Counted from the first letter of the stretch, positions 11,454 to 33,318 are shown. The stretch: 64,000 bases of DNA from an uncultured delta proteobacterium (GCA_963708295.1 CAVPSJ010000014.1:306491-370490); one strand, 5' to 3'. Notes: a model not told the origin generated them from the letters alone. Made by a program: numbers and translations.

Positions 11454-12811
11454 TTACGACGTCTTTTCTCGGGTGACGAATCTTCCCCAGCCCGGCTCTC
11501 CGATCACCTTTCCGTCGCTCATCACCACTTTACCCCGGACCATGGTTAATACGACATCCCCTGCTGTTTCCTTCCCATGATAGGGGGTCCATCCGCATTT
11601 AGAAAGGATCTGGCTGTCCTCCAGGCGCCGTTTGCGCTTCATGTCAACGAAGATCAAATCTGCGTCATTGCCCACGCGCAAAAATCCCTTCTGTTCGACC
11701 AGGCCATAGATCATGGCAGGTTTCTCACTTCGTACCTCCGCCACTCGAGAGAGTGTCCACTTTCCGGCTGCAACGCCATCCAACAAAATGGCGATCGCTG
11801 TCTCCACTCCGGGGATGCCAAACGGCGCACGCCAGATATCTTTCAGCCCGGCTTCCTTTTCTGAACGGGGATAAGGACAGTGATCGGAGTTGACCATGTC
11901 GATCAGGCCCTGGGCGAGGCATTGCTCCATCTTCTCCACTTCGTCCTTTTTGCGCGGCGGCGGAGTGAACTTGGCAAACGGTCCTTTTGACTTCAGATCC
12001 TCCTCGGTTAAGCAGAGGTACTGAGGGCACGTCTCCGTATAGACGGAGACTCCTTGAGCCCTTGCTGCGGCCTGGGCAAGAACGAGAAGAGGAAGGCTGG
12101 TGTGAGCCACTGCAACCCGGGCCCCTGTCTTCTTTGCGGCATAGATCAGGGTCCGGACCGCAGATTTCCTCTGCTTCGGGCGACCGCCACTCCGAAACGA
12201 TCAAAGGATCCTTCCGGCCCTCTCTCCGCAGCCGCTCTTCTGCCTTCTTGAGGAGGGAATCATCTTCGCAATGGAAGAGAGCGATGCCGTCGAATTTCCG
12301 GATCTCCGTTAGAATCTCCATCAGGTTGCCGATGCTGAGGGCTTCGGCCTCATGCAGCTCACACGTGAATCCCTTGAAGCCTAAAGCCCCTTCCTCCCAC
12401 AGGCCCTTCAGATTTCCAAGATTGGTCAGGCTCAAACCGCCCAACAACCCAAAATCGACGACGGAACGGGTCTTCAGGTATTCCCTCTTTTCCAAGAGCT
12501 CCTTTGCGCCGAAGACCTGGGGCTTTGTGCGGTGGTGATCGATGACCGTGGTGACTCCTCCTCTGGCGGCTGCGCTGGTTCCTGTTGATGAAATCCTCCC
12601 GGTCGGTGTAGCCCGGGTCCATCATGTGGACATGTCCGTCGATCGCTCCGGGAAGGACATAGAGACCCTTGGCATCGATCAGTTCCCGAGGGTGGTTCTC
12701 CAGGGATCGGGTGATCCCGACGATCTTTCCTTCTTTGATATAGAGAACACCCGGCCGGATAATTTTAGAATCGACCAGAAGACCATTGGTGATCGCAAGA
12801 TCCGCATTCAT
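11454..12811 (-). CDS. Cyclic amidohydrolase (allantoinase/dihydroorotase/hydantoinase family), two frameshifts
   Basis: Three ORF pieces join into one protein: PGAIDGHVH, AARGGVTTVIDH, GFKGF, ETCPQYL, SDHCPY, GNDADL. Apparent +1 bases near 12585 and 12165. Confidence 0.85.
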
Positions 12812-12946
12812 AGAACAACCTCCAGAATATCTTCCCTCATCTCGGGAGAAGCGAGGAATGTGAAATTTTATTAAAATTGCACCTAAAAAACCCCATCTTG
12901 TGGGCGAGGACGAAAGGTGCGTTTGCTGAAGGCAAAAAAACAAACC

Positions 12947-13079: not shown

Positions 13080-13928
13080 TTACTTCCTTACGTGCGACTC
13101 GAAAGAGGTCCTCACGATGGGAGGAACCTTTGGGACCTTGATCCCCAATCTTTCGAGAGCCAGCAGGCTCAACTCCTCTGGGGATGTCTCAGGAGCCATC
13201 ATTCTCGAAAGTTCGCCTACGATCCGATCGATTCGCTCGATATAGCGAATCCCTTCTTCCATTGTGGTTGAAATTTGGCTTCCGGTGATAGGCTCATGCC
13301 ATGACGATAAGAGATACTTTACCCCGGATAGCTTCTGCAATTTCTGAATGGATTTTATCGATGTTTGGGGATCTATATAGACCGGAACAGTTCCAACAGA
13401 AGGGATTGCGTCTCCTGAAAAAAGAACCCCCTCCTTCTCGAAGAGGAAGGACAGAGCGCCCTTGGCGTGTCCGGGTGTTTCAAGAACCCTGAGGTCCTTT
13501 CCCTTTTCCCAAGAGATGGTCTCTCCATCCTTCAAATCCAGATCCACAGGAACCGAGCCTTCGACGAGCTCAAAGAAGTTGAGGATGGGCCTCTCACGGT
13601 ACTGTCTCTCCACATCCTCTATCCATGGCTTCTCGGCAGAGTGAGCCCCGAAGGAGGCCGGGGAGATTTTTTTTATGGCCAGACATCCACCGATATGATC
13701 CGGGTGAGCGTGGGTTAGGAGGACCAGAGAAATTTCATCCGGAGATCGGCCTATTTCTTTCAAGTAACCCTGGAGAAGGAGGCTTGTCGAAGAAACCCCG
13801 GTATCGATGAGGCAGATCTTATCTCCTATCAGGAGGTAGGAATAAACCGATCGGTCCGCATATTGGCCTTCACCAAGAGCCAATCGAAAAGGATGTTTAA
13901 ATGCATGGATCGTTTCCGTAATCCTCAT
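13080..13928 (-). CDS. MBL-fold metallo-hydrolase
   Basis: LIDTG, THAHPDHIGG, TPGH, FSGD. ATGA overlap with the upstream gene. Confidence 0.92.
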   Translation of the reverse strand: MRITETIHAFKHPFRLALGEGQYADRSVYSYLLIGDKICLIDTGVSSTSLLLQGYLKEIGRSPDEISLVLLTHAHPDHIGGCLAIKKISPASFGAHSAEKPWIEDVERQYRERPILNFFELVEGSVPVDLDLKDGETISWEKGKDLRVLETPGHAKGALSFLFEKEGVLFSGDAIPSVGTVPVYIDPQTSIKSIQKLQKLSGVKYLLSSWHEPITGSQISTTMEEGIRYIERIDRIVGELSRMMAPETSPEELSLLALERLGIKVPKVPPIVRTSFESHVRK

Positions 13929-15187
13929 TCTCGGTCCTTCTTCTTGCTGAGCATTGCCTCCAGCTCGCGAACGGCCCTCTCTGCAAAGTCTGGCTCGTTG
14001 ACGTGCATGGAGAGTTCATGATAGCGAATTCTTGAGTAGTCAATATTTTCTTTGAGGGCCTGATAGAATGCCTGGTCAGACTCCGGCCAGAACCATGACC
14101 TGGGTGCCGGGCCTCCTTGAAGGTTAATCGCCTTCGGCCCGCGGGGGCTGTCATAGGCAGAAAAGCCCCGGGCAGGAATGAGAACGACGGTCTGGCCCCT
14201 GGCCTGATTGATCTTTTTTGCGAAGAGCCGTCCGAGAGAAGCGCTTTCTTCCGGATTGGTCCGCATCAGGGTGATATGAGGTGTATGGCGATAAAAGACC
14301 CGATCCTTCCATTTTTGAGGAACCGTCTCAGGGGTTTTGAAATTGATGAGGTCGATCGCGCCCGGAACGATCACCTGAGGGATGCCCACGTTTCCGGCAG
14401 CCTCCATCCGATGGGGGCCTGCACTCAGGACGCCTCCGACGACTTCGTCGGCGAGTTCCGTGGTGGAGATGTCGAGAACGGCATCGATCTCTCCCTGTTT
14501 TACCAGATCCTCCAGGGCCATGCCGCCGGTGCCTGAGGTGTGGAAGAGGATCACCTCAAATCCCTTTTCCTCCAGGAGTTCCTTCGCGTGCTCCGCGCAA
14601 GGCTGGACGACTCCGAAGACTGTCACCGCCACCTGGATTCTTCTCTCCCCCTCATGAAGATTTTCCCCTTTCAACATTCCCGCGATCGCTCGAACGGCGT
14701 TTAGAAAAATCCTCTTCGTCACCCGGTTGATCGAGATATCCCCCACGGGGTTAAACATCACAATGTCTTTGTATCCGACATAGCCCCGCACATCTCCTGA
14801 AGCCATGGTAGACACCATGATCTTGGGCATCCCAATCGGGAATTGCTGCATGACGGCGCAGGCGATCGCACTCCCGTTCGACCCTCCGAGGGCCATGATG
14901 CCGTCAAACTTGCCCTGTCGGAAAAGCTCCTCAGAAAGTTTGATCGCGCCATCGGTCATCACCTTCTGGGCAGGCACCCGCTCCAGTTGACTGACCGAGG
15001 CGAAATCCGCGTTTGCGGCTTGAGCCACTTCGTGGCATGGGATATCCGAGGAAAATTCTGAGGGAGACCGCTTACAGCTTACATCCATGAGAAGAGGGTG
15101 GACCCCCTCCTCCTCAAGTTTCTCCCGGAGATACTGATATTCTTTCCCCTTCGTATCGAAGGTTCCTATGAGAAGTACCGTCTTCAT
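13925..15187 (-). CDS. Tm-1-like ATP-binding domain protein (UPF0261)
   Basis: IGTFDTKG, GGSNGS, PKIMVST, FHTSGTGG, DISTTE, AGPHRM, TLMRT, HVNEPDFA. Confidence 0.88.
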   Translation of the reverse strand: MKTVLLIGTFDTKGKEYQYLREKLEEEGVHPLLMDVSCKRSPSEFSSDIPCHEVAQAANADFASVSQLERVPAQKVMTDGAIKLSEELFRQGKFDGIMALGGSNGSAIACAVMQQFPIGMPKIMVSTMASGDVRGYVGYKDIVMFNPVGDISINRVTKRIFLNAVRAIAGMLKGENLHEGERRIQVAVTVFGVVQPCAEHAKELLEEKGFEVILFHTSGTGGMALEDLVKQGEIDAVLDISTTELADEVVGGVLSAGPHRMEAAGNVGIPQVIVPGAIDLINFKTPETVPQKWKDRVFYRHTPHITLMRTNPEESASLGRLFAKKINQARGQTVVLIPARGFSAYDSPRGPKAINLQGGPAPRSWFWPESDQAFYQALKENIDYSRIRYHELSMHVNEPDFAERAVRELEAMLSKKKDRE

Positions 15188-18270: not shown

Positions 18271-18314
18271 AATCCCCCCATCCCCCCTTTGCTAAAGGGG
18301 GGTAAAGGGGGATT
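18271..18314. repeat. REP-like intergenic palindrome
   Basis: aatccccccatcccccctttgctaaaggggggtaaagggggatt. Confidence 0.65.
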
Positions 18315-19170
18315 ACCGTTTTTTTTCGGGAAGCTGAATGTTTTTGAAGCCCCTGACCGCTTCGGTAATCGATTTCTCAACAGGAATTCGTTCGGCCGTT
18401 GATCCTCCCACGTACCCGTCTAGCCCCTTCACCTTAGATAAGAGATAGTTTATGTCCTGAGGGGTCTCCGCTGCCCCTCCGTGGCAGGTTACAATCGTCT
18501 CGGGTTTTTTCTTCTTCACTCTGTCGATGATCGCCTGGATGAGGTTTGACATGTCATCCAGGGAGGTCACGGTCTTGGATCCGATAGAGCCTCCGCTGGT
18601 GTTTCCCCCGTGAGCAATGATGTTATCGCATCCCGCTTCCAGCATTTTCTGCGCTTCTTCCGGCGTGGTGCAAAAGGCCTTTGTATAGAGCCCTTTTCGA
18701 TGGGCGATTCCGATCATTTCGACCTCTTTATGATACGTCACCCCTGTTTCCTCCAGGGTCCTTCGGAAATTCCCGTCGATCAACGCCAGGGTCGGACAAT
18801 TCAGGATTCCTGAAAAGCCGGCGGCGATGATCTCATCCAAGAAGGCGTCCATGTTTCGCGTGGGATCGGCCCCCAGAAGGCCCGCCAAGACCGGGGTATT
18901 CTTAATCACGGGGATGATGTCCCTTTTTCCCAGCTCGAGCGTGACGGCATTGGCATCTGCAATCGACAAATAACCTGCCATGGAAGAGAGACCTGCCATC
19001 CGGAACCTTGCCAGGATGTGGGTGGTAATCATATCGGCACCGCCTGCCTCGGCAAATTTGGCAGAGATTCCCGTGCCGGCAAAGGCATCGAAAAGGGCGT
19101 GGCCCTTCTCAACCTCGGCCTTGAATCTGTCGATGATCTCCTGTCTCGTAAACTTCTTTACCATATCCAT
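18313..19170 (-). CDS. Phosphoenolpyruvate-hydrolase-like TIM-barrel protein (homolog of the Tm-1 C-terminal domain)
   Basis: AGTGISAKFAEAGGAD, RFRMAG, DANA, GFSGI-N-PT, LEETG, HGG, GGSTAERIP. Confidence 0.87.
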   Translation of the reverse strand: MDMVKKFTRQEIIDRFKAEVEKGHALFDAFAGTGISAKFAEAGGADMITTHILARFRMAGLSSMAGYLSIADANAVTLELGKRDIIPVIKNTPVLAGLLGADPTRNMDAFLDEIIAAGFSGILNCPTLALIDGNFRRTLEETGVTYHKEVEMIGIAHRKGLYTKAFCTTPEEAQKMLEAGCDNIIAHGGNTSGGSIGSKTVTSLDDMSNLIQAIIDRVKKKKPETIVTCHGGAAETPQDINYLLSKVKGLDGYVGGSTAERIPVEKSITEAVRGFKNIQLPEKKR

Positions 19171-20159: not shown

Positions 20160-21017
20160 CTATTCTTTCCCGAATAGCCCGGTGGGCTTGAAAGCCACGA
20201 TAAGAGCCATGGGAGCAAACAACGTGAAATAGGAGAGTTCGGGGACAAGGGCCTTCCCGAAGTTGTCGATCAGGCCGACCAGGATGCTCCCCACTGCGGA
20301 ACCTTTTAGGCTTCCCCTCCCGCCTACGATCACGACGACGAAGCCCAAAGAAAGGAGCTCGAAATCCAACCCCGGATACACTCCGAAGATGGGGCCACCG
20401 ATGACCCCACCGAAGGCAGCCAAAAAGGCCCCTAAACCAAACATGCATCCCGAGATCAGAGGAACGTTGAGACCCACTCCGCTCGCCATTTCGTGATCAT
20501 CCACTGCCGCCCGCAACTTGGCCCCAACGAGCGTTTTATCGTTGAAGAGCCATAGGGCGATGGCGACGAGAGCAGCCACGACGATAACGAAGAGGCGATA
20601 GACCGGAAATACGACTTGATAGATTTGCGTGGATCCTCTCAAGAATTCAGGGGAAGGAAGCGTGTAGGGGTCCCCTCCCCAGATCAAAAGTGCCAGGTCA
20701 CGAAACACCAGGGCAAATCCCAGGGTGATCATCATTTGCGGGAGCGCCTTCAAAGGAAACTTTCTCAAGAACCCCCGCTCCATGATCAAACCGACCACCC
20801 CGACGACCAGGCCTCCGGCAAAGGCCCCGAGAATGAAGCTCTTTGTGCGCAAGATCACGGAAAGACCGACATAAGCCCCCAGCATAAAATACGATCCATG
20901 GGCGATATTGACAATCTTCATCACCCCATAGATGAGAGAGAGCCCGCTGGCCAGCAAAAAGAGAAGGGCTCCGAAGGAAAGCCCGTTGAGTGTTTGAACC
21001 AATAAAAATTGACTCAA
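20160..21017 (-). CDS. livH: Branched-chain-type ABC permease (LivH-like)
   Basis: NGLSFG, ASGLSLIYG, NIAHG, LRAAVDD, VVIVGG, PTGLFG. TTG start chosen after SD gggag. Confidence 0.9.
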   Translation of the reverse strand: MSQFLLVQTLNGLSFGALLFLLASGLSLIYGVMKIVNIAHGSYFMLGAYVGLSVILRTKSFILGAFAGGLVVGVVGLIMERGFLRKFPLKALPQMMITLGFALVFRDLALLIWGGDPYTLPSPEFLRGSTQIYQVVFPVYRLFVIVVAALVAIALWLFNDKTLVGAKLRAAVDDHEMASGVGLNVPLISGCMFGLGAFLAAFGGVIGGPIFGVYPGLDFELLSLGFVVVIVGGRGSLKGSAVGSILVGLIDNFGKALVPELSYFTLFAPMALIVAFKPTGLFGKE

Positions 21018-21129
21018 GATAAGTTCTCCCGCGAGCGGGTGCAAAATAGGAATGTCCCTATTTTGCACCCGCCATGTTCAAAATCATTACTTGCTCTGTC
21101 TTTTCCATTCTGCCCTCGTTGCAAGAGCT

Positions 21130-22374
21130 TCAGGGCTTAACGGGTGGATATTCACGCGAGTAGACAGGCTGCTTTAGGAACTCCTCGGGTTTAGACTTCC
21201 AGAACTGCGAAACATTGGGATAAGTTTGAATCACCGTATTCTGAAGCTCTCCGCCCGATTTCTCAACTTTCCGGATATAGATGTTCTGAATCGGATTCCC
21301 GTAGTCGTCCAGCTTCATTGGCCCGCGAGGAACATCCTTGAGCTCAACCTTTCTCAAGGCCGCCATCAGCTTCCCTCTGTTCTCTACGTCTCCGTTAATA
21401 GACTTGATGGCTTCTACAATCCACCTGGCTCCCGTATAAGTCCCTTCGGAATAGTAAGAAGCGGCCTTCTTCGCTTTTTCACGGAAGGCCTTGACGAATT
21501 TCTTGTTGGCCGGGTTGTCCAGGACTTCGCTGTAATGAAGAGGAGTGATGATTCCTATGGCCTCATCACCCATTTGGGGGAGGGCATGTTCATCTGTGAC
21601 CGTCCCTCCGCCGATCAAAGGGACCTTTCCTTTGAGGCCGAATTCCTGGTATTGTTTGCAGAATTGCATCGTCTGCCGTCCGGAGAAGACCGCGAAAACG
21701 GCATCCGCGTCCTTCGAAAACTGAGAGAGGTAGGGGCTGAAATCCTGGGCGGTCAAAGGGACCCATATTTTTTGAAGGATCTTTCCTCCCGAATCCTCAA
21801 AAGCCTTGTGGAAGCCTCCGACGCACTCCCATCCGAAGGCGAAATCATATGCGATCACAGCGATCTTCTTGAATTTGAGGACATTATAAGCATATTCTCC
21901 AAAGGGCTGATGCGGTTGGCAGCTCGCCCACCCCGTCCGGATAATCCACTTGGGGATCTTTCTTTGAGTGATGTCATCGGCAGACATGATCGGGTAGGTC
22001 ATGGGGATTTCTTTGGAGTCGATATAGGGCGCGAGCGCGTATGCCGTCGAGGCCATCAGACCCCCTGTCATCAGATGGACTCCGTCTTTTTCAACCAGTT
22101 TTCTCGTCTTTGTCAGACCTGTGGCGGGATTCGCCTCGTCGTCCTCCACCAGGAGTTCGATCTTACGTCCCGCAACTTGATACCCAATCTCCTCAAGGTA
22201 GAGCTCGATACCTGTCAACATGTCCTTTCCATTTGCCGCCATGCCGCCAGAAAGAGGTGAGATATAGCCAATTTTGATCGGGCCCTTGGCTTGAGCGAAT
22301 GAGGCCGAAGGGCTTACCATAATGAGGCTGACTGCAATGACCACCGCAAAAACCGTCCATAACGCTTTTTTCAT
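21130..22374 (-). CDS. ABC substrate-binding protein (PBP1, Liv/aromatic-acid type), paralog 1
   Basis: Signal peptide, PIKIGYISPLSG, DFAFGWE. SD aaggagg. Confidence 0.92.
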   Translation of the reverse strand: MKKALWTVFAVVIAVSLIMVSPSASFAQAKGPIKIGYISPLSGGMAANGKDMLTGIELYLEEIGYQVAGRKIELLVEDDEANPATGLTKTRKLVEKDGVHLMTGGLMASTAYALAPYIDSKEIPMTYPIMSADDITQRKIPKWIIRTGWASCQPHQPFGEYAYNVLKFKKIAVIAYDFAFGWECVGGFHKAFEDSGGKILQKIWVPLTAQDFSPYLSQFSKDADAVFAVFSGRQTMQFCKQYQEFGLKGKVPLIGGGTVTDEHALPQMGDEAIGIITPLHYSEVLDNPANKKFVKAFREKAKKAASYYSEGTYTGARWIVEAIKSINGDVENRGKLMAALRKVELKDVPRGPMKLDDYGNPIQNIYIRKVEKSGGELQNTVIQTYPNVSQFWKSKPEEFLKQPVYSREYPPVKP

Positions 22375-22480
22375 CCTTCCGTTCCTCCTTCCTTAGTTTC
22401 TAAATGACCGAATTCTACCCACTCTTCTGCAAATTATAAAGCAGAGCATATTTATTATAGTTTGCATTAACCCCAGTTGG

Positions 22481-23068
22481 TCATGGCGAGGAAGAGTTTT
22501 TTTCCACAAACCTCCGAAGGCTCTTTGGCATCGTGCATTCGGGGACGAGCCCGGGTGCGGAAAGAGCCACCTCAACGGCCAGCTCAGCCCCTTTCTTATA
22601 AATCTCCCTGCACGAATTCTCCCTGTCGATCTTCTTGTAAAAGGGCCGAAGCATCGCGCAGCATTTCCCTCCCAGCTCTTCCTGAAACCGGTTGTGGAGA
22701 TGGGCCGACAAACGGCTGATGCATCCATACCTGGGTCCCACAGGTCCTGTCCTACCATAGAGGATACCGAGGATCAGGACTCCGGAGGCCAAAGCCCCGC
22801 ACATACATCCCGTCGGAGTTCCTTCCATTCCTGCTTCGTCAATCTTCACGGCTCCACCTCCTCCGTGGAATCCGGAGACCATCTTAGGAGGGGCAGGATT
22901 AACTTTTAGTTCGAGGATCTCTGCGACCGCAGCGAAGACGGATTCGCTTCAATGGTATCCCTGCTTACGGTTCAAATTGGCCAGCTGGCCTGCCCTTTTG
23001 GCAAGGGCGGCGATTCGGCGGGCCTTGATGCGATTGGCCGCAGGCGTTGTTTTGATCGGTTGCCTCAC
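22481..23068 (-). CDS. C_GCAxxG_C_C-family redox protein, probable selenoprotein (in-frame TGA at codon 40)
   Basis: GTG start at 23068 overlaps the upstream stop (GTGA), with SD gaggag. The frame is open for 39 codons to GYH-TGA(22949-22951)-SESV and continues in frame into CMCGALASG...KCC...SC. 195 aa if read through. Confidence 0.82.
22914..22948 (-). promoter_or_regulatory. Putative bacterial SECIS element
   Basis: After UGA the mRNA reads AGCGAAUCCG-UCU-UCG-CUGC-GGUC-GCAG-AGA. The G-initiated 4-nt loop begins 20 nt after UGA. Confidence 0.65.
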
Positions 23069-24327
23069 TTCAGCATCTCCTCTTCATACGGAAAGATCGT
23101 GAAGACCTCATGCCCCTTATCCGTAATGACCAGGTCCGATTCCAGGCGGACTGTTTGCTGAAGCAAAGGATGTCCGGCAAAGGTCTCCACGGCAAAATAC
23201 ATATTGGGTTTGATTTCAGCGGGATATTTCAGAGAATAGGCCCTCGAAATCCACATCCCTTCATAAAGGGTTAGCCCGATGGAATGGGCAAACTGCTGAA
23301 GGGTCACGGTTCCGTACTTGTCATCGTCGTAGAGAGGGAACTTTTCGGCCACATCCTTGCTGGTCTTGCCGGGTTGCATCATTTCAATGGCCGCCTGAAG
23401 GGAGTCATAGCATTCCTTATACAGGTCCTTTTCCTTCGGGGTTGGCTTTCCTTCGACCTTCCAGCAGCGCACATAGTCCACGAAATATCCGGAGGGTCCG
23501 ACGGTATTATTGTCGATAATGATCAGATCTCCTTGACGGATGATCTTGTCCGTGGGCCAGCGCCGGTAGGGGCTCGTGTTTCCGCCGGAGGCGACGATAA
23601 TCTCGTAGACGATTTCGCATCCCTTTTCGTACATGTACTCGATCATTTTCCCGGAAAGCTCCCGCTCGGTGATGCCTGGTTTGGCCCACTCATAACGCGC
23701 TTTATACGTACAGGCATCTCCAATGGCTGCGGACTGTTTCAAAAGCTCGATTTCATCCGGTGTTTTGATGACACGGGCAGCGGACATGGCCGGCATGGCG
23801 TTCACTACTTTTATCCCCTTCTTCTGAAAGGCGGCAAGCGAAGCCATATCGAGAGAATCGATTCCGATCTTTTCCTTCTCCACCTTGTGTTCCCGCAGGA
23901 CTTCGAGAACACTGTCAACCATGCGATCCACCATGTATTCCACGGCCCCTTCGGACCATCTCCAGGTGATGGCCGGGCGGATCCTTCCTTCCATCCAGGG
24001 AAGGTCCATCTTGGCGCAAACAAGGTCGGAGCCGGCCGTTTCGAAGAGGATGGGCTCTCCCCCTCTCGGAAGGACGGCGTAGCGGATGAAGATGTTATAT
24101 TTCCAGTTCCCCTGGAAAGAACTGGTCAGATAACGAATGTTCGCTCCGTCATATACGACCAGAGCCCCCAGATCATGGAGTTCCATCTGCTCCTTGGCTT
24201 TCGCCAGGCGGTCTTTCCGGAGCCGTTCAAAATTGACCCTTTCCTGCCAATCCGCACCCGTCAGGGAATAGACCCTCCGGGCATCGTACTCATGAGGTTT
24301 TCCGATAAACGAAATATCCTTTGCCAT
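23065..24327 (-). CDS. M24-family (Xaa-Pro peptidase/creatinase-like) metallo-enzyme
   Basis: Creatinase_N-like region (NIRYLT), RVIKTPDEI, and candidate metal ligands IIID, FVDY, AHSIG, AVET, RLES. Confidence 0.88.
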   Translation of the reverse strand: MAKDISFIGKPHEYDARRVYSLTGADWQERVNFERLRKDRLAKAKEQMELHDLGALVVYDGANIRYLTSSFQGNWKYNIFIRYAVLPRGGEPILFETAGSDLVCAKMDLPWMEGRIRPAITWRWSEGAVEYMVDRMVDSVLEVLREHKVEKEKIGIDSLDMASLAAFQKKGIKVVNAMPAMSAARVIKTPDEIELLKQSAAIGDACTYKARYEWAKPGITERELSGKMIEYMYEKGCEIVYEIIVASGGNTSPYRRWPTDKIIRQGDLIIIDNNTVGPSGYFVDYVRCWKVEGKPTPKEKDLYKECYDSLQAAIEMMQPGKTSKDVAEKFPLYDDDKYGTVTLQQFAHSIGLTLYEGMWISRAYSLKYPAEIKPNMYFAVETFAGHPLLQQTVRLESDLVITDKGHEVFTIFPYEEEMLK

Positions 24328-24381
24328 GTTCGTCCTCCTTCCCTTGTTCGGTTATTGAAATTTTGAAATCTCTTCTCAGGT

Positions 24382-25178
24382 TTATCTTTCCTTTCGCATC
24401 GAAGCCATAAGGGCTTCCTCTTCTTCCAGCATATGCTGTTTCATCGCCTCGACTGCTTTCTGGGAGTCTCTCGCCTCTAGGGCGTCGTAGATCTTCTTGT
24501 GGGCGGCGAGGGCTTTTTTGGGCGACCAGGGGATGCGGTATATTTTGGTCTGGCTCTTTCCGAATGAGATTGGCCAGCATGTCCCAGACCAGGATGAGAA
24601 CCTCGTTCTGTCCGATTTCTGCGATCAGGCGATGGAACCGGATTCCCGAAGAGATGAAGGCATCCTGATGGTCGATGTTCTTCTTCATTTCCTCGATGCA
24701 CCACCAGAGGCTTTTCAAAAACGAATCGTTTATCCGTTTGGCGGCGATGTCCACCATCCCCACCTCGAGCATCCTTCGAGTTTGCCAGAGTTTGACCAGA
24801 GTATCCCGCTCGATCTGGAGCCGGGTTCTGAGGGAGATGATTCAGGGATTCGATATAGGGGAGGAAGTTCACCTCCTTGACATAGATTCCGTCGCCCACT
24901 TTGATTTCGATCAGGCCCATGACGTCCAGGATTCGAAGGGCCTCCCTCAGGGAGTGGCGGCTGATGTGAAATTGCTGCGCCAGGCTCCGTTCGGAAGGGA
25001 GGCGGTCTCCGGGGGTGTATTTCTTCCTCAGAATCAACGTCTGAATCTGGTCGGCTGCATTTTCGTAGAGCCGAACCCGCCGGATGGGCTTTAACAGAAT
25101 CTCGCTCTCCGGCTCCGGCTTTTTAGAGGGCGCCGATGGGGGACGCGTTGGGAATCGACGGCCGATGACTTGATTCAC
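24382..25178 (-). CDS. FadR/GntR-family transcriptional regulator, two frameshifts
   Basis: wHTH PGDRLPSERSLA...ISRHSLREALRIL...GDGIYV, followed by an FCD domain (RFHRLIA...N..L, HKKIYDAL, MKQHM). Extra bases near 24840 and 24558. Confidence 0.87.
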
Positions 25179-25264
25179 ATCGAACCCTTTCTTTTTTCCT
25201 CCCAAGAAGTCACTGAGGGGAGAAGCGCGTTCCGAAGGGTGATCCTTCGGAAGACGAGGCGGTC

Positions 25265-25308
25265 AAGTGGTTAGACCAATTCATAGTACGGCTGAAATCT
25301 TTTGTCAA
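25265..25308 (-). promoter_or_regulatory. FadR-type operator next to a putative sigma70 promoter
   Basis: AAGTGGTTAGACCAATT (25265-25281) fits the TGGT-N3-ACCA FadR/PdhR-type palindrome. TTGACA on the minus strand at 25303-25308. Confidence 0.68.
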
Positions 25309-25395
25309 GGGGAAAATCAGGCTTTCCCTCCGAGATGACGGCGGGGTGATTTTACGAGACCGGAGGGTATAAGCAGAGAGGATCGGGTGTTTGGT

Positions 25396-26372
25396 TCAGC
25401 CCTTTGTCTTCTTTCGGACCACTTCGTCCCAGTTGATGCTGTACGAGGGCTTTCTTCCCTCCAGCACATCGACGGCGTTTTGAGCGGCCCCTTCAGCAAG
25501 CTGTGCCACTGCATCCCTGGTTAATGCACCCGTGTGCGGGGTGAGAATCACATTTTCCATTTGAAAGAACGGATGGGACGTTTCTGGGGGTTCCTTCGCG
25601 AAGACATCGAGGCCTGCCCCGGCGATCATTCCCTGCTGAAGGGCTTCGATCAGTGCCGGTTCATCAATGATCTCCCCCCGTGAGGTGTTGATGAGAAACG
25701 CCGTAGGTTTCATCCAGCTCAATTCTTTCTTTCCGATGAGTCTTTGCGTCTCGCTGCTCAACGGCACGTGGACGGAGAGAAAGTCGGACGTCTTGAACAT
25801 CTCTTCTCTCTCTTTGGTAAACACAAGACCGGGAAGATGGAGATCCTCGGGGTTGAGATAGGGATCGTAGCCCCAGACTTCCAACCCCAGGGGTGGCAGA
25901 TGTCAGCCACAATTCTGCCGATCCTGCCCAGACCGATGAGGCCGACCCTTTTTCCGAAAAGGCCCATGGGGCGATATTCGTACCGTGATTTGAAGTTTCC
26001 TTTTCGGACTTCTCTGTTGAGATAGAAGATCTGTTTTGACAGAGCCAGGATGAGCGTCACGGCAAGCTCTGCAACAAAACGGTCCTGGGGGCCCTTGACG
26101 CCGCACACCACGACGCTGGATTCCGTGGCGGCTTCGATGTCTACATTATCGAGTCCTCCTCCGGTCCGGGAGATCACCTCCAGATGGGGTGCTGATTCGA
26201 TCATCGATCGGGTGACTTTGGTGGCCGTCCGGACGATGAGGCCCTGGACTTCTTTCAACCGTTGCCCCACCGATTCTCCTGAGGGGTCCGGACTGATCAG
26301 GAAGTCCACCTTTCCTTCGAGCACCTTGATGCCGGCTTCATCAATGGGTTCTGCCAAGAGTACCTTTTTCAA
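25396..26372 (-). CDS. D-2-hydroxyacid dehydrogenase (SerA/glyoxylate-reductase-like), one frameshift
   Basis: RTGGGLDNVD, GLIGLGRIG, HVPL, INTSRG, GLDVF..EP, TPHTG. Frame change near 25890. Confidence 0.88.
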
Positions 26373-26402
26373 CGTCAACCTCCGGGTCTTATTTGTTACC
26401 CT

Positions 26403-26576
26403 CTACAGCAATTGGTCCAGTAACTCCATGAGTTCTGGATCGCCGCCTGCGGGTGGAGACCAGTTCACATGGATCACCGCCACCCCCTGAATTTGCAGGG
26501 CTTCAGCAAAATCTGCCACTCCGATATTGACCGCGATCGGGCCCTGGTGAAGGAGCTCTTCCAGTTTATTTGGCAC
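26403..26576 (-). CDS. Small FdrA-associated protein (57 aa)
   Basis: GTG start with SD ggagg inside the fdrA 3' end. Motif AVNIGV.DF..AL..QG..V.HV.W.PPAGG. Confidence 0.8.
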   Translation of the reverse strand: MPNKLEELLHQGPIAVNIGVADFAEALQIQGVAVIHVNWSPPAGGDPELMELLDQLL

Positions 26577-28131
26577 GAGTAACCTCCGAAAGACTTGATG
26601 CGAGGAGTGCACAAAACTGGGCCGCCTGAGCGCTGCTTGGGAAAACGGCGACCCCTGCTTCTTCGAGCACCCTGACCTGCTGCGGAAAGTTCTGGGGGTC
26701 TCCTTCTGTTCCGCATATTGAAGCAACGACGCTGAGGGATCCGCCCCTCTTCTTGGCCGCGGCTTTGGCCTCCTGGATTGCCGAGACCAGCTCGCCAGCC
26801 GGGTCGGGGGAAGCATTGAAGCCAAGCACAAAATCGAGAAGAAGAATTGCCACTTGCGGGTCCTGGCCTTCAGCCAGAATGCGATCACAGCGCAGGCGGG
26901 AGTCAATCATGGGATGGGGCTTTCCAACCGTAAAATCATCGGTTCCCATGTCCACCAGGGTGTGCTCCTCACTTCTCATGGGATCGGCCAATTTCACATT
27001 TCCATGGAGCGGGGCGTTCGAGTGGACGACGATGCCTGCGTCTTGGAGAATCTGCTGGGCCTGGAAGCAAAAGGTGCCGCCGGCGAAGATTCCGCGGAGG
27101 TATTGTTGCGCTGGATTCTTATTCACTTGTTCTCTTCCAGCAAGCTTCTGCAAATTGGATGAATTGGCATCAAAACGCGGCGGAGCGTGACCCGTTACCC
27201 TTTGAATGGCCATGGCAGCAGCATCATCCAACGTGCGGGCCGTCTTATAAGGAGCATCTGCGGAGAGAGACCCTTGTTTGAGCCCCAGGAAACAAGCGAC
27301 CAGGGGCTTTTGACACTGGCGCATTTTGGGAATGAGACTGGCAAGCGCCCGTTCTCCGGGGGGCTTGGACAAGATCGTGATGACTTCGGTCTGCGAATCG
27401 GAATCGAGGGCGTCTAAGGCGGTCAGGAAGGAGATGCCACCCACGGCATTCGAAAGGTCCCGGCTGCCGATTCCTATGGCCTGAGAGATCCCCGAGCCCG
27501 CCTGATGGACGAGGGAAGTGAATTCCTGGATCCCTGTGCCGGAAGCACCGATGACGCCAATGGGGCCGCGACGAACGGCGTTGGCGAAGCCAATTCCCTT
27601 GCCGCCGATGATGGCTGTGCCGCAATCAGGACCCATGACCATGAGGCCATGCTCACGGGCATACTCCTTGAGGGAGATCTCGCTCTCAACAGGGACATTA
27701 TCACTGAACAGGAATACGTTCAGGCCGTGCTCCAGCGCCTTCCGGGCTTCTCGGGCAGCATAGAAGCCTGGAACAGAAATAACCGCGAGGTTGGAATAAT
27801 GTTGCATCGCCATAGCTTCATCAAGAGTGCGGATATCGTCCCTCGGAGCAGAACCCAAGTCGATCGTTAACCAGCGATCTATGTCCTCAAGCATTGAGGC
27901 GAGAGCTTCTTGGCTGTCCGCTTTGACCGCTACAATAAGGTCGCTGGGTGTTGCTTCCGAAATCTCCTGACCTCTTACTTCAATTTCTTCGAGCAAGACT
28001 TTGTTCTTTTCCGTTCCCATCAGAGCCGCCGCCTGCAGAATACCCTTTTGCTGGGACAGGCGCTTGGCCACCCGCATCAGAAAAACAGAATCATGATATT
28101 CGTTCTTTCGGATAACGTATCCCGTCACCAT
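26566..28131 (-). CDS. fdrA: FdrA (AllF)-family acyl-CoA-synthetase-like protein
   Basis: YHDSVFLM, ISVPG, FLFSDNV, MGPDCGT, GASGTGIQE, SKPP, FAGGT, GKPHPMID, GTEGDPQ. Confidence 0.92.
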   Translation of the reverse strand: MVTGYVIRKNEYHDSVFLMRVAKRLSQQKGILQAAALMGTEKNKVLLEEIEVRGQEISEATPSDLIVAVKADSQEALASMLEDIDRWLTIDLGSAPRDDIRTLDEAMAMQHYSNLAVISVPGFYAAREARKALEHGLNVFLFSDNVPVESEISLKEYAREHGLMVMGPDCGTAIIGGKGIGFANAVRRGPIGVIGASGTGIQEFTSLVHQAGSGISQAIGIGSRDLSNAVGGISFLTALDALDSDSQTEVITILSKPPGERALASLIPKMRQCQKPLVACFLGLKQGSLSADAPYKTARTLDDAAAMAIQRVTGHAPPRFDANSSNLQKLAGREQVNKNPAQQYLRGIFAGGTFCFQAQQILQDAGIVVHSNAPLHGNVKLADPMRSEEHTLVDMGTDDFTVGKPHPMIDSRLRCDRILAEGQDPQVAILLLDFVLGFNASPDPAGELVSAIQEAKAAAKKRGGSLSVVASICGTEGDPQNFPQQVRVLEEAGVAVFPSSAQAAQFCALLASSLSEVTRAK

Positions 28132-28157
28132 TCTATTTCTCCGGCTATCCTGACCGA

Positions 28158-28325
28158 CCCTCCCTTGTATCCCCTCCCGTCAAGGGAGGGGGAAATAAAT
28201 GATTTCCCTCTCCCCTTATCCCTCCTTCCCTCCCTTTACAAAAGGGAGGAATTCCCCCCCTTTGACAAAGAGAGGTAACCTGCCTGCGCGAAGTCCCGCC
28301 TTGCGGGACGAAGGCAAGGGGAGAT
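28158..28325. repeat. Cluster of REP-like hairpins
   Basis: cccctcccgtcaagggagggg, tccctttacaaaagggagg, gtcccgccttgcgggac. Confidence 0.6.
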
Positions 28326-28410
28326 GCTCTGAAACCTATGTTTTCTTTATTATGAACTCCTTGGTCATTTCAGGTTCTTCTATTCCCCATTCCGCATTCT
28401 GCATTTGCAG

Positions 28411-29676
28411 TTACGATCGGCCCAGCCCGTATTTTCGGCCAAAGCTCAACAGGGCCTTTTTGAAGCATTCCATTGGAGCGCGGACCAGCCCGGCTCCGAT
28501 AATGGAATGACCGGGATTCTTATTGGCGATCGCGGTGTCGATGATGGGAGCAATTCCTGTCTGGACCACTTTACGTATATCGATACCTACTGGAGCTCCC
28601 TGAAAACCAAGCACAGGCATGCGGTAATTGGGACTGGTGCTCACCGTGATCTGACGCATTTCCCGGTTATACGCCATCGCCTCCTCGGGCGTGCCACCGA
28701 CCAGACTCAGGATTCCTGGGGCACCACACAGAACGAGCCCGCCCCAACCTACGGTCTCCGTAATCGCAGAATCTCCCATATCGGCGCCTGCGTCTTTTTC
28801 GCTGTAGCCGGGCAGGTACAGTCCATCCACTTTCGGCGACGGTGCGGTGAACCATTCATCTCCAAGGCCGCTGACACGGATTCCAAACTCCGTCCCATTC
28901 CGTGCCATGGTCACAACGACGGTGCTGTGCTCAATGCCCATTGCAGGGTCCGCCGAAGCTTTACCCGACGCCATGGAAAGACCAAGGAAAATGAGTTCAT
29001 GGTTCGTAATATAATTGATCGTACCCACCAGGTGATCTGTTTTGACGCCCGTTTCAATCATCGGCGCCACCATTGCATTTGCAAATAGACTTGAGGCAGC
29101 CATGGATCGATTATGCAACTCATCCCCCATTTGCAGTGCTTTAGCAATAATGGGCTTGAGAGGAAGTCCTCCCTTTTGAAGGAGACCTTTTCTGAGCGAC
29201 GGTGCCCAGACATCTCGCCAGAGGCGCAAGCCCTGTAGAGCCGAGTCGCTGTAATCGCCGAACTGCTGGCGTCCCTCCACCTGGCGACAGAAAGCCCGAT
29301 TCGCAAAGGCTTTATTCTCGACGACCCACACGGGCATCGACCAAGAGATCGTGCCAGCCATTGGGCCGACCGCGTGGTGGTGATGATTGGGTTCAATCTT
29401 AATGGCTCCGCTCTCGAGGAGCTTCACTGCCTCCTCTTCGTTCTTGGCCCAACCTTCGAAAAGAACCACACCGATCATGGCACCCCTCTGGGCACCGCAC
29501 ATGTGCTGCCAATCAATAGGCGGTCCGGAGTGCAGGATCATTCGATCTTCAAGACCCGGGATGACTTCTCCTGCGGGTGCAATATCGACCAGGACAGGAT
29601 CAGCGGCATTGATCCGTCTCACGGTCTCTAAGTTGGCAGCTTCAATCTTCTGTTTGATGTCTTCTGCAGGTGTCAA
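28411..29676 (-). CDS. ylbE: DUF1116 protein (YlbE/AllG-like)
   Basis: ILHSGPP, AVGPMAG, MGDELHNR, MARNG.EFGI, DMGDSAITE, GIDIRKVV, IGAG. TTG start after SD ggagg. Confidence 0.9.
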   Translation of the reverse strand: MTPAEDIKQKIEAANLETVRRINAADPVLVDIAPAGEVIPGLEDRMILHSGPPIDWQHMCGAQRGAMIGVVLFEGWAKNEEEAVKLLESGAIKIEPNHHHHAVGPMAGTISWSMPVWVVENKAFANRAFCRQVEGRQQFGDYSDSALQGLRLWRDVWAPSLRKGLLQKGGLPLKPIIAKALQMGDELHNRSMAASSLFANAMVAPMIETGVKTDHLVGTINYITNHELIFLGLSMASGKASADPAMGIEHSTVVVTMARNGTEFGIRVSGLGDEWFTAPSPKVDGLYLPGYSEKDAGADMGDSAITETVGWGGLVLCGAPGILSLVGGTPEEAMAYNREMRQITVSTSPNYRMPVLGFQGAPVGIDIRKVVQTGIAPIIDTAIANKNPGHSIIGAGLVRAPMECFKKALLSFGRKYGLGRS

Positions 29677-29831
29677 CGTTCTCCTCCATTCGTATCTTTG
29701 ACCTTCTCTTCTCAACCTCGCTTCCTTCCAGAGTCCTATTCCCTTTGCCTATCAAAGACCGCAATTCTAAAACTTTGAAGATATTCTCGCTCGCCCGACT
29801 CTCCCGATTCTTTCATAGCTTCAGGGAGAGA

Positions 29832-30812
29832 TCAGGCAGGAAGCGCACTCAATTCCCCTTCGACAAAGAGCATGCCGGTCAGCATTCCCGCCAGGATATC
29901 CCATCCGGATGTTTCGCCGATCCCGAGTAAGCGCTCGGTTTCTCCCAGGGTTCGACTTAGGTCTCGGCCATTCAACAATGACACGACCACATCATGGAGC
30001 GGTTTGGGTCCGTGGCCGAGGGCATGATCTCTGAGAATCGCATGGCTGATGGGATGGGTCTGTGTGGACGCCCATTCGATCAGATCCATGACAGGTTCGT
30101 CTTCCCAGCGGAAGTGCTGAGGGTACGCTGTCTTGAGCGCGTGAGCGGCGAAGAGCAGACCTCCGAGAAAATCATCTCCTGAAGGCGTCAGGCCCGGACC
30201 GAGGCCGACCAGTTCCCTGCTTCTCCGCGCCACCTCCGTCATATCGAGGTCCAAACAGGCCGTTGTAAGATCAAGCATGGCATTGCGAGCTTTGGCGAGG
30301 AAGGGATCTGCGTTCGAAATCGCCTGCTTCTTGCCGCCCACGACCGACGAAATGAGTGAAATCATCCGGCCGAGCCCTTTTGCGTTCCCAAGCCTCGTGA
30401 CGGCCTCAACCCACTGGCGGATGTGCGCCTGAACGGTAGGGAGCGGCTCTGCGTTCCCCGGTCCGACGCCGGAGGGCTTCCATTCCGTTGCTGGCTCCAG
30501 ATCAACGGTTGTTCCCTCCGGAAATCGTATCCACGGACCATCGACGAAGAAGTTTTGGCCTACGCTAATAGACCTCGGCCGAAACGAAACCAGAATGCAC
30601 CGCCTGTGCATGGCCAGCCCTTGCTGTGACATCCACAAAATTTCTCCGTCTCCGCTGACCAAGTAGACCGATGCAGAAAGAACAGCAAGCACTTTTCCTG
30701 AGAAACCATGCTGAGCAAGCAGGCCCTTGGCCCTCGATCCGATCTGCTTTGCATGATAGAGAAAAGGCTTCTCGTTTTCATTAAGAACAAAACAATCGGC
30801 AATAGGCTGCAT
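29832..30812 (-). CDS. ylbF: DUF2877 protein (YlbF/AllH-like)
   Basis: LVGLGPGLTPSGDDFLGG, THPIS, IGETSGWDILAG. Confidence 0.88.
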   Translation of the reverse strand: MQPIADCFVLNENEKPFLYHAKQIGSRAKGLLAQHGFSGKVLAVLSASVYLVSGDGEILWMSQQGLAMHRRCILVSFRPRSISVGQNFFVDGPWIRFPEGTTVDLEPATEWKPSGVGPGNAEPLPTVQAHIRQWVEAVTRLGNAKGLGRMISLISSVVGGKKQAISNADPFLAKARNAMLDLTTACLDLDMTEVARRSRELVGLGPGLTPSGDDFLGGLLFAAHALKTAYPQHFRWEDEPVMDLIEWASTQTHPISHAILRDHALGHGPKPLHDVVVSLLNGRDLSRTLGETERLLGIGETSGWDILAGMLTGMLFVEGELSALPA

Positions 30813-30813
30813 C

Positions 30814-31917
30814 TTACTTCGTCTGACCGATGACGCCTTCAACGAGCCAGTCCATTTTCCCCAGGGCTGCGATGGGAAATGCCTCGCCGGCCTTCACCCG
30901 CTCAACGCCTTTGTTATCCTTGATCGGACCCTGGAAAACATTCAGCTTGCCGTTGATAAATTCTTGTTTTTTTGTGTTGACCAGCTTTATTGCATCAGAC
31001 GGGACGGCGGGGCCGAAGGGTGCGATGGTGAGATAATCACTCGCAAGGTTGCCTAAGAGGGCCTCGCTTTTCCAAGTCCCCTCCATGACCTGTTTGGCAA
31101 ACCGGGTGTAGAGTTCACCCCAGGTAAAGGCAACGCCGCTGATCCAGCCCTTGGGAGCGAACTTTTGTACGCCGATGTAATGGTAGCCTACGGAGAAGGC
31201 CCCGCGCTTTTCAGCAGCCTGCACCACCGTAATCGGAGAGTCTACAATGACACCAAGGACATCCACGCCTTGATCCAAGAGGGCGTTTGCAGCGGTCGCT
31301 TCCTTTCCAGGATCCAGGAAGGTTCCGGTAAAGACCACGCGTGTTTCCGCTTTCGGATTGACGGACTGCACTCCAAGGTGAAAGGCGTTCACGTTCGCCA
31401 GGAAAAAGCTGATGGGAAGGGCGACCACATAGCCCAGCTTATTTGTCTTGGTGGTTTTGCCCGCCGCAATACCCATCAGATAAAAGGCCTCCGGAGTGCT
31501 TGCCCAGTAAGTGCCCAGGTTCGGGGCGAGCTTGTATCCCCCGGGGTGCACAAACTTGACGTCCGGGTATTTTTTAGCCACTCTCAAGGCCGGATCCAGA
31601 TAGCCAAAGCTTGCGGGGATGATGAGCTGGGCTCCTTGCCTGATCATGTTCTCCATCACGCGCTCAGCATCGGCGCCTTCCGGGACATTCTCGACTTCGA
31701 TCAGCTCGACGTTCGGAAGATTTTTCTTCATGACCTGCACACCCTCGGCATGGGCCTGGTTGTAACCGGCGTCTGCGATGGAGCCAATATGCAGGATGCC
31801 TACCTTCAATTTTGGCTGTGCAGAGGGTGTTCCTGTAAGGCTCAGTACGATGGCCACGACAAGGCCGGTTAAAAGAACCAGAAACGCAACTCCATTGTTT
31901 GATCTCTTCTTGTTCAT
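30814..31917 (-). CDS. BMP-family (purine/nucleoside-type) ABC substrate-binding protein
   Basis: IADAGYNQAH, SFGY, NAFHLG, DPGKE, MDWLVEGV, with an N-terminal signal or anchor. Confidence 0.9.
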   Translation of the reverse strand: MNKKRSNNGVAFLVLLTGLVVAIVLSLTGTPSAQPKLKVGILHIGSIADAGYNQAHAEGVQVMKKNLPNVELIEVENVPEGADAERVMENMIRQGAQLIIPASFGYLDPALRVAKKYPDVKFVHPGGYKLAPNLGTYWASTPEAFYLMGIAAGKTTKTNKLGYVVALPISFFLANVNAFHLGVQSVNPKAETRVVFTGTFLDPGKEATAANALLDQGVDVLGVIVDSPITVVQAAEKRGAFSVGYHYIGVQKFAPKGWISGVAFTWGELYTRFAKQVMEGTWKSEALLGNLASDYLTIAPFGPAVPSDAIKLVNTKKQEFINGKLNVFQGPIKDNKGVERVKAGEAFPIAALGKMDWLVEGVIGQTK

Positions 31918-32020
31918 TTTTTCCTCCTCTTTCTTAATGGCTGGATGTTCCAGCCCGTTTTTTGAAATTCTTAGTTAATATTCTTCGTTCTAAATTCACA
32001 GTTGGAAACAATTTTGTGAT

Positions 32021-32346
32021 AAATCCTAAATTCAAAACTCTAAACTCTAAATAAACTCAAAACCCAAAACGGACTAAAATCCAAAACTTTCAAATCGAAA
32101 TATTTGATGATCTTGTAGAAAGTCGTCTCACCGGTGAAAACCGGTGTCCAGTGTTCTTAGAAGCTCCAAAATACTGGATGTGCTCGCTCGCTTCGCTCAC
32201 TCCGCCTCCCTTCGGTCGCCCGGCTGGAGTTTACCCCGTACTTATTACGGGGCCGGAATGACGAATTAGGTTTTTGCGACATTTTACGACTGCATCAAAT
32301 TTGGATTTTGGGTTTATTTAGGGTTTGTTGTTTAGAGTTTAGAATT
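32021..32346. mobile_element. Nested MITE-like element inside inverted heptamer arrays
   Basis: Degenerate aaa(t/c)(c/t)ct arrays at 32021-32100 and their complement at 32300-32346. They flank an element with ends atttgatgatcttgtagaaagtcg / cgacattttacgactgcatcaaat and internal hairpins. Confidence 0.6.
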
Positions 32347-32400
32347 CAAGTTCCCTTTTTATAGATGTTATATATAAATTTCCAGACTGAAACAAGTGAG

Positions 32401-33318
32401 TCATTCCGTCCCTCGGAAGATCTGGCCTAAACTGGCCGGCGCTGCATGCCGTCGTGCGCCGCCCCAGACCGCAAGAACTCCCAGGCTCAAAAGATACGGA
32501 AGCATGTCAAGCAAGAAGGGTGAGATGGGCACCCCCCTTGCCTGCATCTGAAGCTGCAGGGCAATCGCACCGCCGAAAAGTAATGCTCCGACGATCGCCC
32601 GGAGCGGATGCCACTTGGAGAAAATGACCAAAGCAACGGCAACAAACCCTCTGCCCGCTGTCATCCATTCGGCCCAAGTCTTTGCCACTGCCAATGAGAG
32701 ATGCGCTCCTGCGATGCCGCCGAGGAGGCCGGCGATGAACAGTGCCTCATACTGCACTCTGTACGGATGCATCCCCGCGGCAAAGGCGGCCGTGGGTTTT
32801 TCTCCGACTGCCCGCAAGCTCAGTCCCCATCGCGTGTAGAAGAGTGCCCACCATACCAGAATGGCAATCGGGGTGACGAGGTAAACCAGTATATCATAAT
32901 GGAAGAGGGCTGCACCAGCGACGGGAAGGTCTGAGAGGATTGGAATTCGGATCTCATTCAGACCTTTGATTTGGCTGCCGATGCAGGGGGCGCCCAGGAG
33001 GGCGCTGAGTCCCACTCCGCAGAACATCAACGCCAGTCCGCTCGCCAGCTGATTTGCCCTGCGCTCGATCACCAGGTATCCGAAGATCAGGTTGAAGAGA
33101 GCCCCTGCCAGAGCGGCTGCGAAGACACCGAGCGCGGGGTTGCCCGTCTTGACCGTTACGTTGAAGCCCACCACCGCTCCCATGAGCATCACACCCTCCA
33201 GGCCCAGGTTAATGATGCCCGCCCGCTCACCGATGACCTCCCCGAGGGTGGCATAGAGGAGTGGTGTTCCGGCGACAATCGACCCTGAGAGGAGACCTTG
33301 TAACGAAGATCCTATCAT
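32401..33318 (-). CDS. Nucleoside/sugar-type ABC permease
   Basis: TPLLYATLGE, ERAGIINLGLEG, ANQLASG, LRAVGE, AGRGFVAVALV, PASLG. ATGA overlap with the upstream permease. Confidence 0.9.
   Translation of the reverse strand: MIGSSLQGLLSGSIVAGTPLLYATLGEVIGERAGIINLGLEGVMLMGAVVGFNVTVKTGNPALGVFAAALAGALFNLIFGYLVIERRANQLASGLALMFCGVGLSALLGAPCIGSQIKGLNEIRIPILSDLPVAGAALFHYDILVYLVTPIAILVWWALFYTRWGLSLRAVGEKPTAAFAAGMHPYRVQYEALFIAGLLGGIAGAHLSLAVAKTWAEWMTAGRGFVAVALVIFSKWHPLRAIVGALLFGGAIALQLQMQARGVPISPFLLDMLPYLLSLGVLAVWGGARRHAAPASLGQIFRGTE

Follow-up and report, generated by a model that had tools for sequence, protein, structure and literature searches.

On the minus strand of the 64,000-nucleotide stretch analysed here (hereafter the window), which derives from an uncultured delta proteobacterium, the default ORF list contains a 133-amino-acid frame at 22481..22882 that starts at the ATG at 22882. 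5' of this ATG the same frame stays open up to a GTG at 23068, and is crossed by a single in-frame TGA (22949-22951). We asked whether this TGA is a stop codon or whether it encodes an amino acid. In the reading proposed here, to which we assign a probability of about 0.92, 22481..23068 forms a single, intact selenoprotein gene of the C_GCAxxG_C_C family with a product of 195 residues. A hairpin would direct selenocysteine (Sec) to the UGA, and the product would probably be a redox or metal accessory to the M24 hydrolase encoded immediately upstream. The UGA is almost certainly read as selenocysteine, and the gene is almost certainly real and longer than gene callers make it.

A reading frame that continues through UGA

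The gene (22481..23068, minus strand, as are its parts described below) comprises 195 codons followed by a stop codon at 22481-22483. Translation with TGA as U yields the 195-residue product announced in the preliminary description, reading ...KQGYH-U-SESVFAAV... around codon 40. The GTG start (23066..23068) overlaps the TGA stop of the M24 gene (23065-23067) as GTGA, and a Shine-Dalgarno-like hexamer, GAGGAG (23077..23082), lies 8 nt upstream of the GTG, within three consecutive Glu codons (EEE) of the M24 gene. All coordinates given in the preliminary description hold, as do the overlapping start and the ribosome-binding site that it reported. The upstream partner (23065..24327) encodes a 420-residue protein with Creatinase_N and Peptidase_M24 domains (Pfam). 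Translation of the selenoprotein would start at the overlapping GTG, either by a ribosome that has just ended the M24 gene or by one that binds GAGGAG inside it. The window shares the GTGA overlap with 5 of 6 related genomes (G034, G069, G030, G023 and G015); in the sixth, G062, the M24 gene stops at TAA and an ATG follows directly. Promoter and terminator scans of 21000-25600 returned matches at chance level only.

With U read as C, the product scores 60.1 bits against PF09719 (C_GCAxxG_C_C; cut-off 27) over residues 38-166, and 54.7 bits against TIGR01909 (cut-off 47.4), which NCBI names 'C-GCAxxG-C-C family (seleno)protein'. The match to the family model sets in at residue 38, just two residues ahead of the TGA. 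A 64-row alignment places the UGA codon (22949..22951; U40) on the family's invariant first Cys: the Sec/Cys column 40, C90 and G91 are invariant, and A92, C137 and C153 are at least 90% conserved. The earlier placement of the TGA at the family's Cys is borne out by this column, which holds nothing but C or U. The second-Cys motif here is CGALASG, its trailing G standing one place later than in CGAxxG.

Sec-containing members of this family were already known, as the preliminary description stated. A table in PMC13188914 lists the family as selenoprotein form 1 (Zhang & Gladyshev 2007) and form 2 (2008), and a table in PMC9312934 includes C_GCAxxG_C_C among selenoprotein families; the name C_GCAxxG_C_C is absent from the main text of Zhang & Gladyshev 2007 and 2008. 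The family is described there as a 'putative redox-active protein'. The gene is an additional member of a family already catalogued as containing selenoproteins: like these, it carries Sec in place of the conserved Cys and passes the PF09719 and TIGR01909 cut-offs. The window's clade differs from them in a 37-residue N-terminal helix and a GFHGGGG motif, in extra Cys residues at 88, 115, 136 and 178, and in its tight coupling to an M24 gene. What is specific to the window's gene, namely this conserved, tight coupling and the resemblance, in fold and in profile, to the split-Soret cytochrome c iron-centre domain described below, is of modest extra value.

Could the TGA nevertheless be a genuine stop, separating a 39-residue upstream peptide from a functional protein of 133 residues that starts at the internal ATG (Met62, 22880..22882) chosen by gene callers? 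Besides the default ORF list, public annotation would agree with such a division, since for 112 of the 120 best public protein hits, coverage of the read-through protein does not exceed 73%; the three of these that were read, P0002, P0011 and P0033, begin after the Sec codon. However, the shorter protein would lack the first invariant Cys, and codons 38-61 are part of the family domain. Cys orthologs of about 203 residues (P0023 and others) run unbroken across the site and conserve the N-terminal helix, which rules out a separate upstream peptide. All orthologs conserve, in frame, the residues that flank the TGA before and after, and helices 9-35 and 40-51, which lie before and from the Sec residue onwards, are confident parts of the fold in the AlphaFold2 model. 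We consider a genuine stop highly improbable. The ortholog alignment has what the preliminary description expected of it, TGA or Cys at codon 40 and a conserved sequence upstream.

The other 8 of these 120 hits extend over 89% or more of the read-through protein; of the six that were read, five are Cys forms and the sixth, P0043, a public gene call, has W at that position. Annotation of the gene, and of most of its public relatives, omits the N-terminal 40-60 residues as well as the selenocysteine. Missed N-termini and missed Sec codons therefore make selenoproteome counts for Syntrophales-like wetland and sediment metagenome bacteria too low. The term 'hidden', used for this selenoprotein in the preliminary description, is apt for public gene calls but not for the literature, where the family is catalogued.

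The hairpin 3' of the UGA and the selenocysteine machinery

A candidate SECIS hairpin occupies 22918..22935, and was assessed by RNAalifold consensus, pair counts, metagenome variants and folding energies. Its core, CUGC-GGUC-GCAG (22921-22932), consists of the upper-stem pairs C17-G28, U18-A27, G19-C26 and C20-G25 closed by the loop GGUC (22925-22928), which begins 20 nt past the UGA. The textbook case of a bacterial SECIS, that of E. coli fdhF, also has a GGUC loop. The core and its spacing are as first proposed, but the UCU/AGA extension that had been drawn beneath it is better replaced by two lower pairs, C15-G30 and U14-A31, across a G16/A29 mismatch. At codon 40 this hairpin would recruit SelB carrying Sec-tRNA(Sec), and selenocysteine would be inserted in place of the family's first conserved Cys.

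Taken alone, the window's hairpin does not stand out from chance: its 61-nt fold has a z-score of 0.20, with 113 of 200 shuffles folding at least as well, and an Rfam scan of 22700-23100 (E <= 10) returned a chance snoRNA match only. That the hairpin goes beyond chance follows from comparison with relatives and not from the single-sequence fold. In 12 distinct Sec-type sequences the pattern CYGC-GGUC-GCRG is kept with its loop 20 nt past the UGA; the four upper pairs are present in 12 of 12 and the GG of the loop is invariant throughout. The second stem pair (21-30) is UA in seven, CG in four and UG in one. The covariation score is 0.260, compared with a shuffle mean of 0.182, and was reached by 1 of 500 shuffles. 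RNAalifold, run unguided, predicts the same hairpin, so that the structure first put forward from one sequence is also the one chosen from the alignment, with covariation. A thirteenth sequence (L055), which had not been used in writing the pattern, matches it.

We also scanned metagenome contigs with a UGA-plus-hairpin pattern in which pair 21-30 was left free (Y, R) and the other three pairs were fixed. The scan gave 82 stretches, for which 80 loci were returned, with 69 distinct 48-mers. At the free pair these 48-mers have U-A in 56, C-G in 10, U-G in one and C-A in two, i.e. the pair is kept in 67 of 69 (Fisher p = 2e-9, a value computed over kin that are not independent).

Constraint is also visible at synonymous sites. 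Among four full-length orthologs, 8 of 9 invariant-residue codons at +1 to +11 past the UGA use a single codon, compared with 25 of 104 in the rest of the gene (Fisher p = 2e-4), and at the nucleotide level the sequence beside the TGA is the gene's most conserved part. A further hairpin can be drawn at +1 to +18 past the UGA (AGCGAA/UUCGCU), which is paired in 88.9% of cells and overlaps the 5' arm of the proposed SECIS hairpin by two bases. As a SECIS candidate it was rejected: its covariation is no better than that of shuffles (164 of 500), and its loop is too near the UGA for the published model.

That model (Zhang & Gladyshev 2005, as given in section 5 and the Fig. 2 legend of PMC13188914) has an upper stem of 4-16 bp, an apical loop of 3-9 nt that opens with G at its first two positions, and a distance of 16-37 nt from the UGA to the loop. 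The window's hairpin falls within these ranges with a loop of 4 nt, a stem of 4 bp, a leading GG and a spacing of 20 nt. The model also sets a minimum free energy of -7.5 kcal/mol or lower, a mark for which its text in PMC13188914 leaves the measured stretch unspecified; the window gives -6.3 kcal/mol for the hairpin alone, -6.5 kcal/mol for the local fold and -9.6 kcal/mol for 48 nt with the hairpin enforced. On its own the hairpin thus falls short of the mark, against which it is borderline overall. A hairpin-bearing fold at -7.5 kcal/mol is found in 4 of 12 relatives (G062, L043, L046 and L051).

The window's genome (4.95 Mb in 20 contigs, 91% complete) encodes the machinery to use such a signal. 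selB (353 bits), selA (625 bits) and tRNA-Sec (81 bits) all score above their cut-offs, and ARAGORN finds a tRNA-SeC with anticodon TCA. Two selD genes (L010 and L011, on contigs C17 and C4), likewise above their cut-off, each contain one in-frame TGA. All four of selA, selB, selC and selD, the genes for which the preliminary description proposed a search, are present. One selD has an 8-bp hairpin of -12.8 kcal/mol whose GGAU loop begins 21 nt past the UGA, according to the same loop scan that gives 20 nt for the selenoprotein gene; in the other, GGAU was located by eye 20 nt past the UGA. The UGA-loop geometry of the genome's own selD hairpins is nearly identical to that of the selenoprotein gene, whose hairpin is much shorter and weaker than the scored selD hairpin.

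These results bear on a second explanation, in which the UGA is read through without selenocysteine, by a near-cognate Cys or Trp tRNA or under a reassigned code, and the hairpin exists for some other purpose. The W at the Sec site of P0043 and the shortness of the hairpin would suit it. But TGA terminates both the M24 gene and the selenoprotein gene, so the genetic code has not been reassigned; the full Sec machinery is present; and the loop and spacing of the hairpin match the published bacterial SECIS model and resemble the selD hairpins of the same genome. We therefore hold readthrough of this kind to be very unlikely, and retain hairpin-directed insertion of selenocysteine.

The hairpin appears to leave its imprint on the protein. 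All Sec forms have Ala-Val-Ala (GCG GUC GCR) at one site, which makes them a clean example of a SECIS constraining a protein sequence. Ala-Val-Val takes its place in the closest Cys orthologs (L047, P0023 and kin), of which L047 keeps a hairpin remnant, CCGC-AGUC-GUGG. Distant long-insert Cys-type homologs have A-I/V-N there and are without the hairpin.

A shorter C_GCAxxG_C_C subfamily (QGFN-U-AES...; L031, L032 and L033, in the related genomes G033, G025 and G008) also has TGA at the first Cys, followed by a different, stronger hairpin, UCCUUGA-GUU-UCAAGGA. A search of the window's genome with that subfamily's query found no copy of it.

Recurrence of the UGA codon among relatives

A six-frame search found an ortholog in 7 of 55 genomes of the order, the window's genome included, and TGA stands at the codon in 7 of 7. 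In total, TGA at codon 40 was found in 13 distinct genome sequences (the window's among them) and in 69 distinct metagenome variants. Across 80 loci from named genome records the first-Cys column holds TGA in 12 and TGT or TGC in 68, a proportion biased towards Cys because one of the two search patterns demanded it. In public sequencing data, contigs from 3 DNA runs belonging to 3 studies bridge the TGA codon, and among the differences listed (40, with 81 further rows beyond them) none falls at 22949-22951. The best share of the stretch's words found in any public run is 0.33, and none reaches half. Independent assemblies thus carry the TGA, in favour of the reading in the preliminary description. 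One RNA-library run of a relative contains two short contigs at 22919-23112, one of them touching the site, which are not a demonstration of transcription.

It is hardly credible that the TGA arose by nonsense mutation, or through misassembly, in a gene that is decaying within a metagenome-assembled genome of low quality, even though a GntR regulator, a 2-hydroxyacid dehydrogenase and an amidohydrolase nearby lie in overlapping ORF pieces and two relatives carry truncated copies of the selenoprotein gene, because the codon recurs across the genomes and metagenomes just listed, the region beside it is the best conserved of the gene, and in the neighbouring GntR gene, whose lesion was traced, the changes are indels of single bases and not substitutions. 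The preliminary description had made this last point for several lesions; it stands for the GntR gene, the one lesion traced here.

Where relatives are represented in metagenome assemblies, 22949-22961 is a point at which many contigs terminate or branch, and the summed depth is highest at 22927-22957. The contig ends and the depth peak around 22916-22961 fit a hairpin region common to many strains.

A quick version of the family tree places the window's protein in a clade of 12 rows (support 99), in which 5 Cys forms are nested among 7 Sec forms. A second Sec clade, of the long-insert type, lies inside the same 36-row clade, and a third lies far away; the Sec/Cys label requires at least 3 changes on the tree. 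Since the first two Sec clades share the hairpin and L047 keeps a remnant of it, the pattern would fit replacement of Sec by Cys within the family.

The M24 partner, the gene neighbourhood and a possible function

The selenoprotein gene lies in a run of minus-strand genes encoding a GntR/FCD regulator (broken into two ORFs), the M24 hydrolase, the selenoprotein, two Peripla_BP_6 binding proteins, two Liv-type permeases, two ATPases, a PF09370 PEP-hydrolase-like protein, a UPF0261 protein, a metallo-beta-lactamase-fold protein and a fragmented amidohydrolase. The order GntR - M24 - selenoprotein - binding protein - permease is found in 5 loci (L040, L042, L043, L044 and L045); L041 has the same order except that the binding protein is missing, and L054 has a truncated selenoprotein gene following M24. 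Across orthologous loci, identity is 90-97% for M24 and 60-88% for the selenoprotein. An M24 C-terminal tail is encoded upstream in 58 of the 72 metagenome hits with at least 150 nt of upstream sequence. Among the 55 genomes of the order, 8 have M24 orthologs and 7 the selenoprotein. M24 is kept in G006 (L120), in which the selenoprotein is reduced to its N-terminal helix codons followed by a metallo-beta-lactamase-fold gene, and in G015 (L025/L054), in which it is cut after residue 86.

The pair formed by the selenoprotein and M24 genes is conserved and tight, but the family's Sec forms are not linked exclusively to M24. Long-insert Sec forms neighbour an aldehyde:ferredoxin oxidoreductase gene in 2 of the 4 loci examined; NosL-like and PF09370 genes are further neighbours. 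A family member is acetone-induced in Desulfococcus biacutus, as described in PMC4103992. The family therefore gives the impression of an accessory that serves a variety of enzymes and does not belong to any single pathway. A link between Sec chemistry and the M24 catabolic pathway, as put forward in the preliminary description, may be drawn from the conserved gene pair, while related Sec forms stand beside other enzymes.

As side observations, the long-insert Sec forms of L048 and L051 lie directly downstream of aldehyde:ferredoxin oxidoreductase genes, and a single contig carries two Sec copies, L046 and L051, separated by about 7 kb. The PF09370 PEP-hydrolase-like gene and the UPF0261 gene of the window's cluster are located at 18313-19170 and 13925-15187 (minus strand), and distant Cys-type homologs often adjoin PF09370/UPF0261 genes (L049, L065, L066 and L068-L070).

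With its Creatinase_N and Peptidase_M24 domains, the partner resembles M24 enzymes of the DddP and prolidase types. Among solved structures it comes closest to 4S01/4RZY ('Peptidase M24', 90 bits), which we take to be DddP structures. Assignment as the DMSP lyase DddP was rejected, since the NCBIfam DddP model gives 112.2 bits where its cut-off is 600; the remaining NCBIfam equivalog models all fall far short of their cut-offs as well. The M24 clade is large and comprises 1491 proteins at E <= 1e-20, which their sources name only 'Xaa-Pro aminopeptidase'; homologs that the sources file under other phyla are 68-70% identical.

The AlphaFold2 model of the selenoprotein has a pLDDT of 91.1 and a pTM of 0.87. 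Foldseek finds one clear PDB neighbour, 1h21_A (probability 0.99, TMq 0.52), to which VIA-align superposes the model with a Z of 8.5 and an rmsd of 3.7 over 140 aligned residues (next best Z 3.8). The same chain is the sole match of the 64-sequence profile (E 7e-4). [quoted passage not shown] The selenoprotein shares the non-haem domain alone with the cytochrome: split-Soret cytochrome c has two CXXCH haem motifs, whereas the 195 residues of the selenoprotein contain no CXXCH. The centre in 1H21 is presumably a Cys-bound iron-sulfur cluster. Reading the selenoprotein sequence by eye, we saw no signal peptide.

The likeliest role for the product is that of a small redox or metal-centre protein in the cytoplasm. 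U40, C90, C137 and C153 would best be explained as parts of a single site for a metal or for redox chemistry, with the non-haem iron centre domain of split-Soret cytochrome c as its homologue, and the chances are about even between a metal or iron-sulfur centre and a selenenylsulfide redox couple. The selenoprotein would then act as an accessory to the co-translated M24 hydrolase within a cluster for uptake and catabolism. A stronger version, in which the protein is a dedicated partner of this M24 clade, Sec40 ligates an iron-sulfur-type centre and the pair carries out a redox step on an imported nitrogen compound, is unlikely; if true, a selenium-ligated metal centre would serve an M24 enzyme, in a step that is redox-dependent and not purely hydrolytic. 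The conserved M24 coupling and the structural tie to the iron-centre domain are two leads on the function of the family, neither of which is new biology yet.

Several neighbouring genes in the window are interrupted. The GntR/FCD regulator (24290-25205, minus strand) lies in two overlapping ORFs, with the GntR HTH at 24477-25205 and FCD at 24290-24772; compared with its L040 ortholog, the window has single-base insertions near 24838 and 24561. A D-2-hydroxyacid dehydrogenase gene (25396-26378, minus strand) is likewise split into overlapping ORFs, 25758-26378 and 25396-25884, probably by a frameshift, and the amidohydrolase (11454-12943, minus strand) is in three overlapping ORF pieces, a probable indel lesion or assembly error. 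At 26566-30842 (minus strand), FdrA-like, AllG-like (PF06545) and AllH-like (PF11392) genes stand in a row and make up an oxamate carbamoyltransferase gene set, upstream of which lies a Bmp/PnrA-type ABC transporter (30814-35907).
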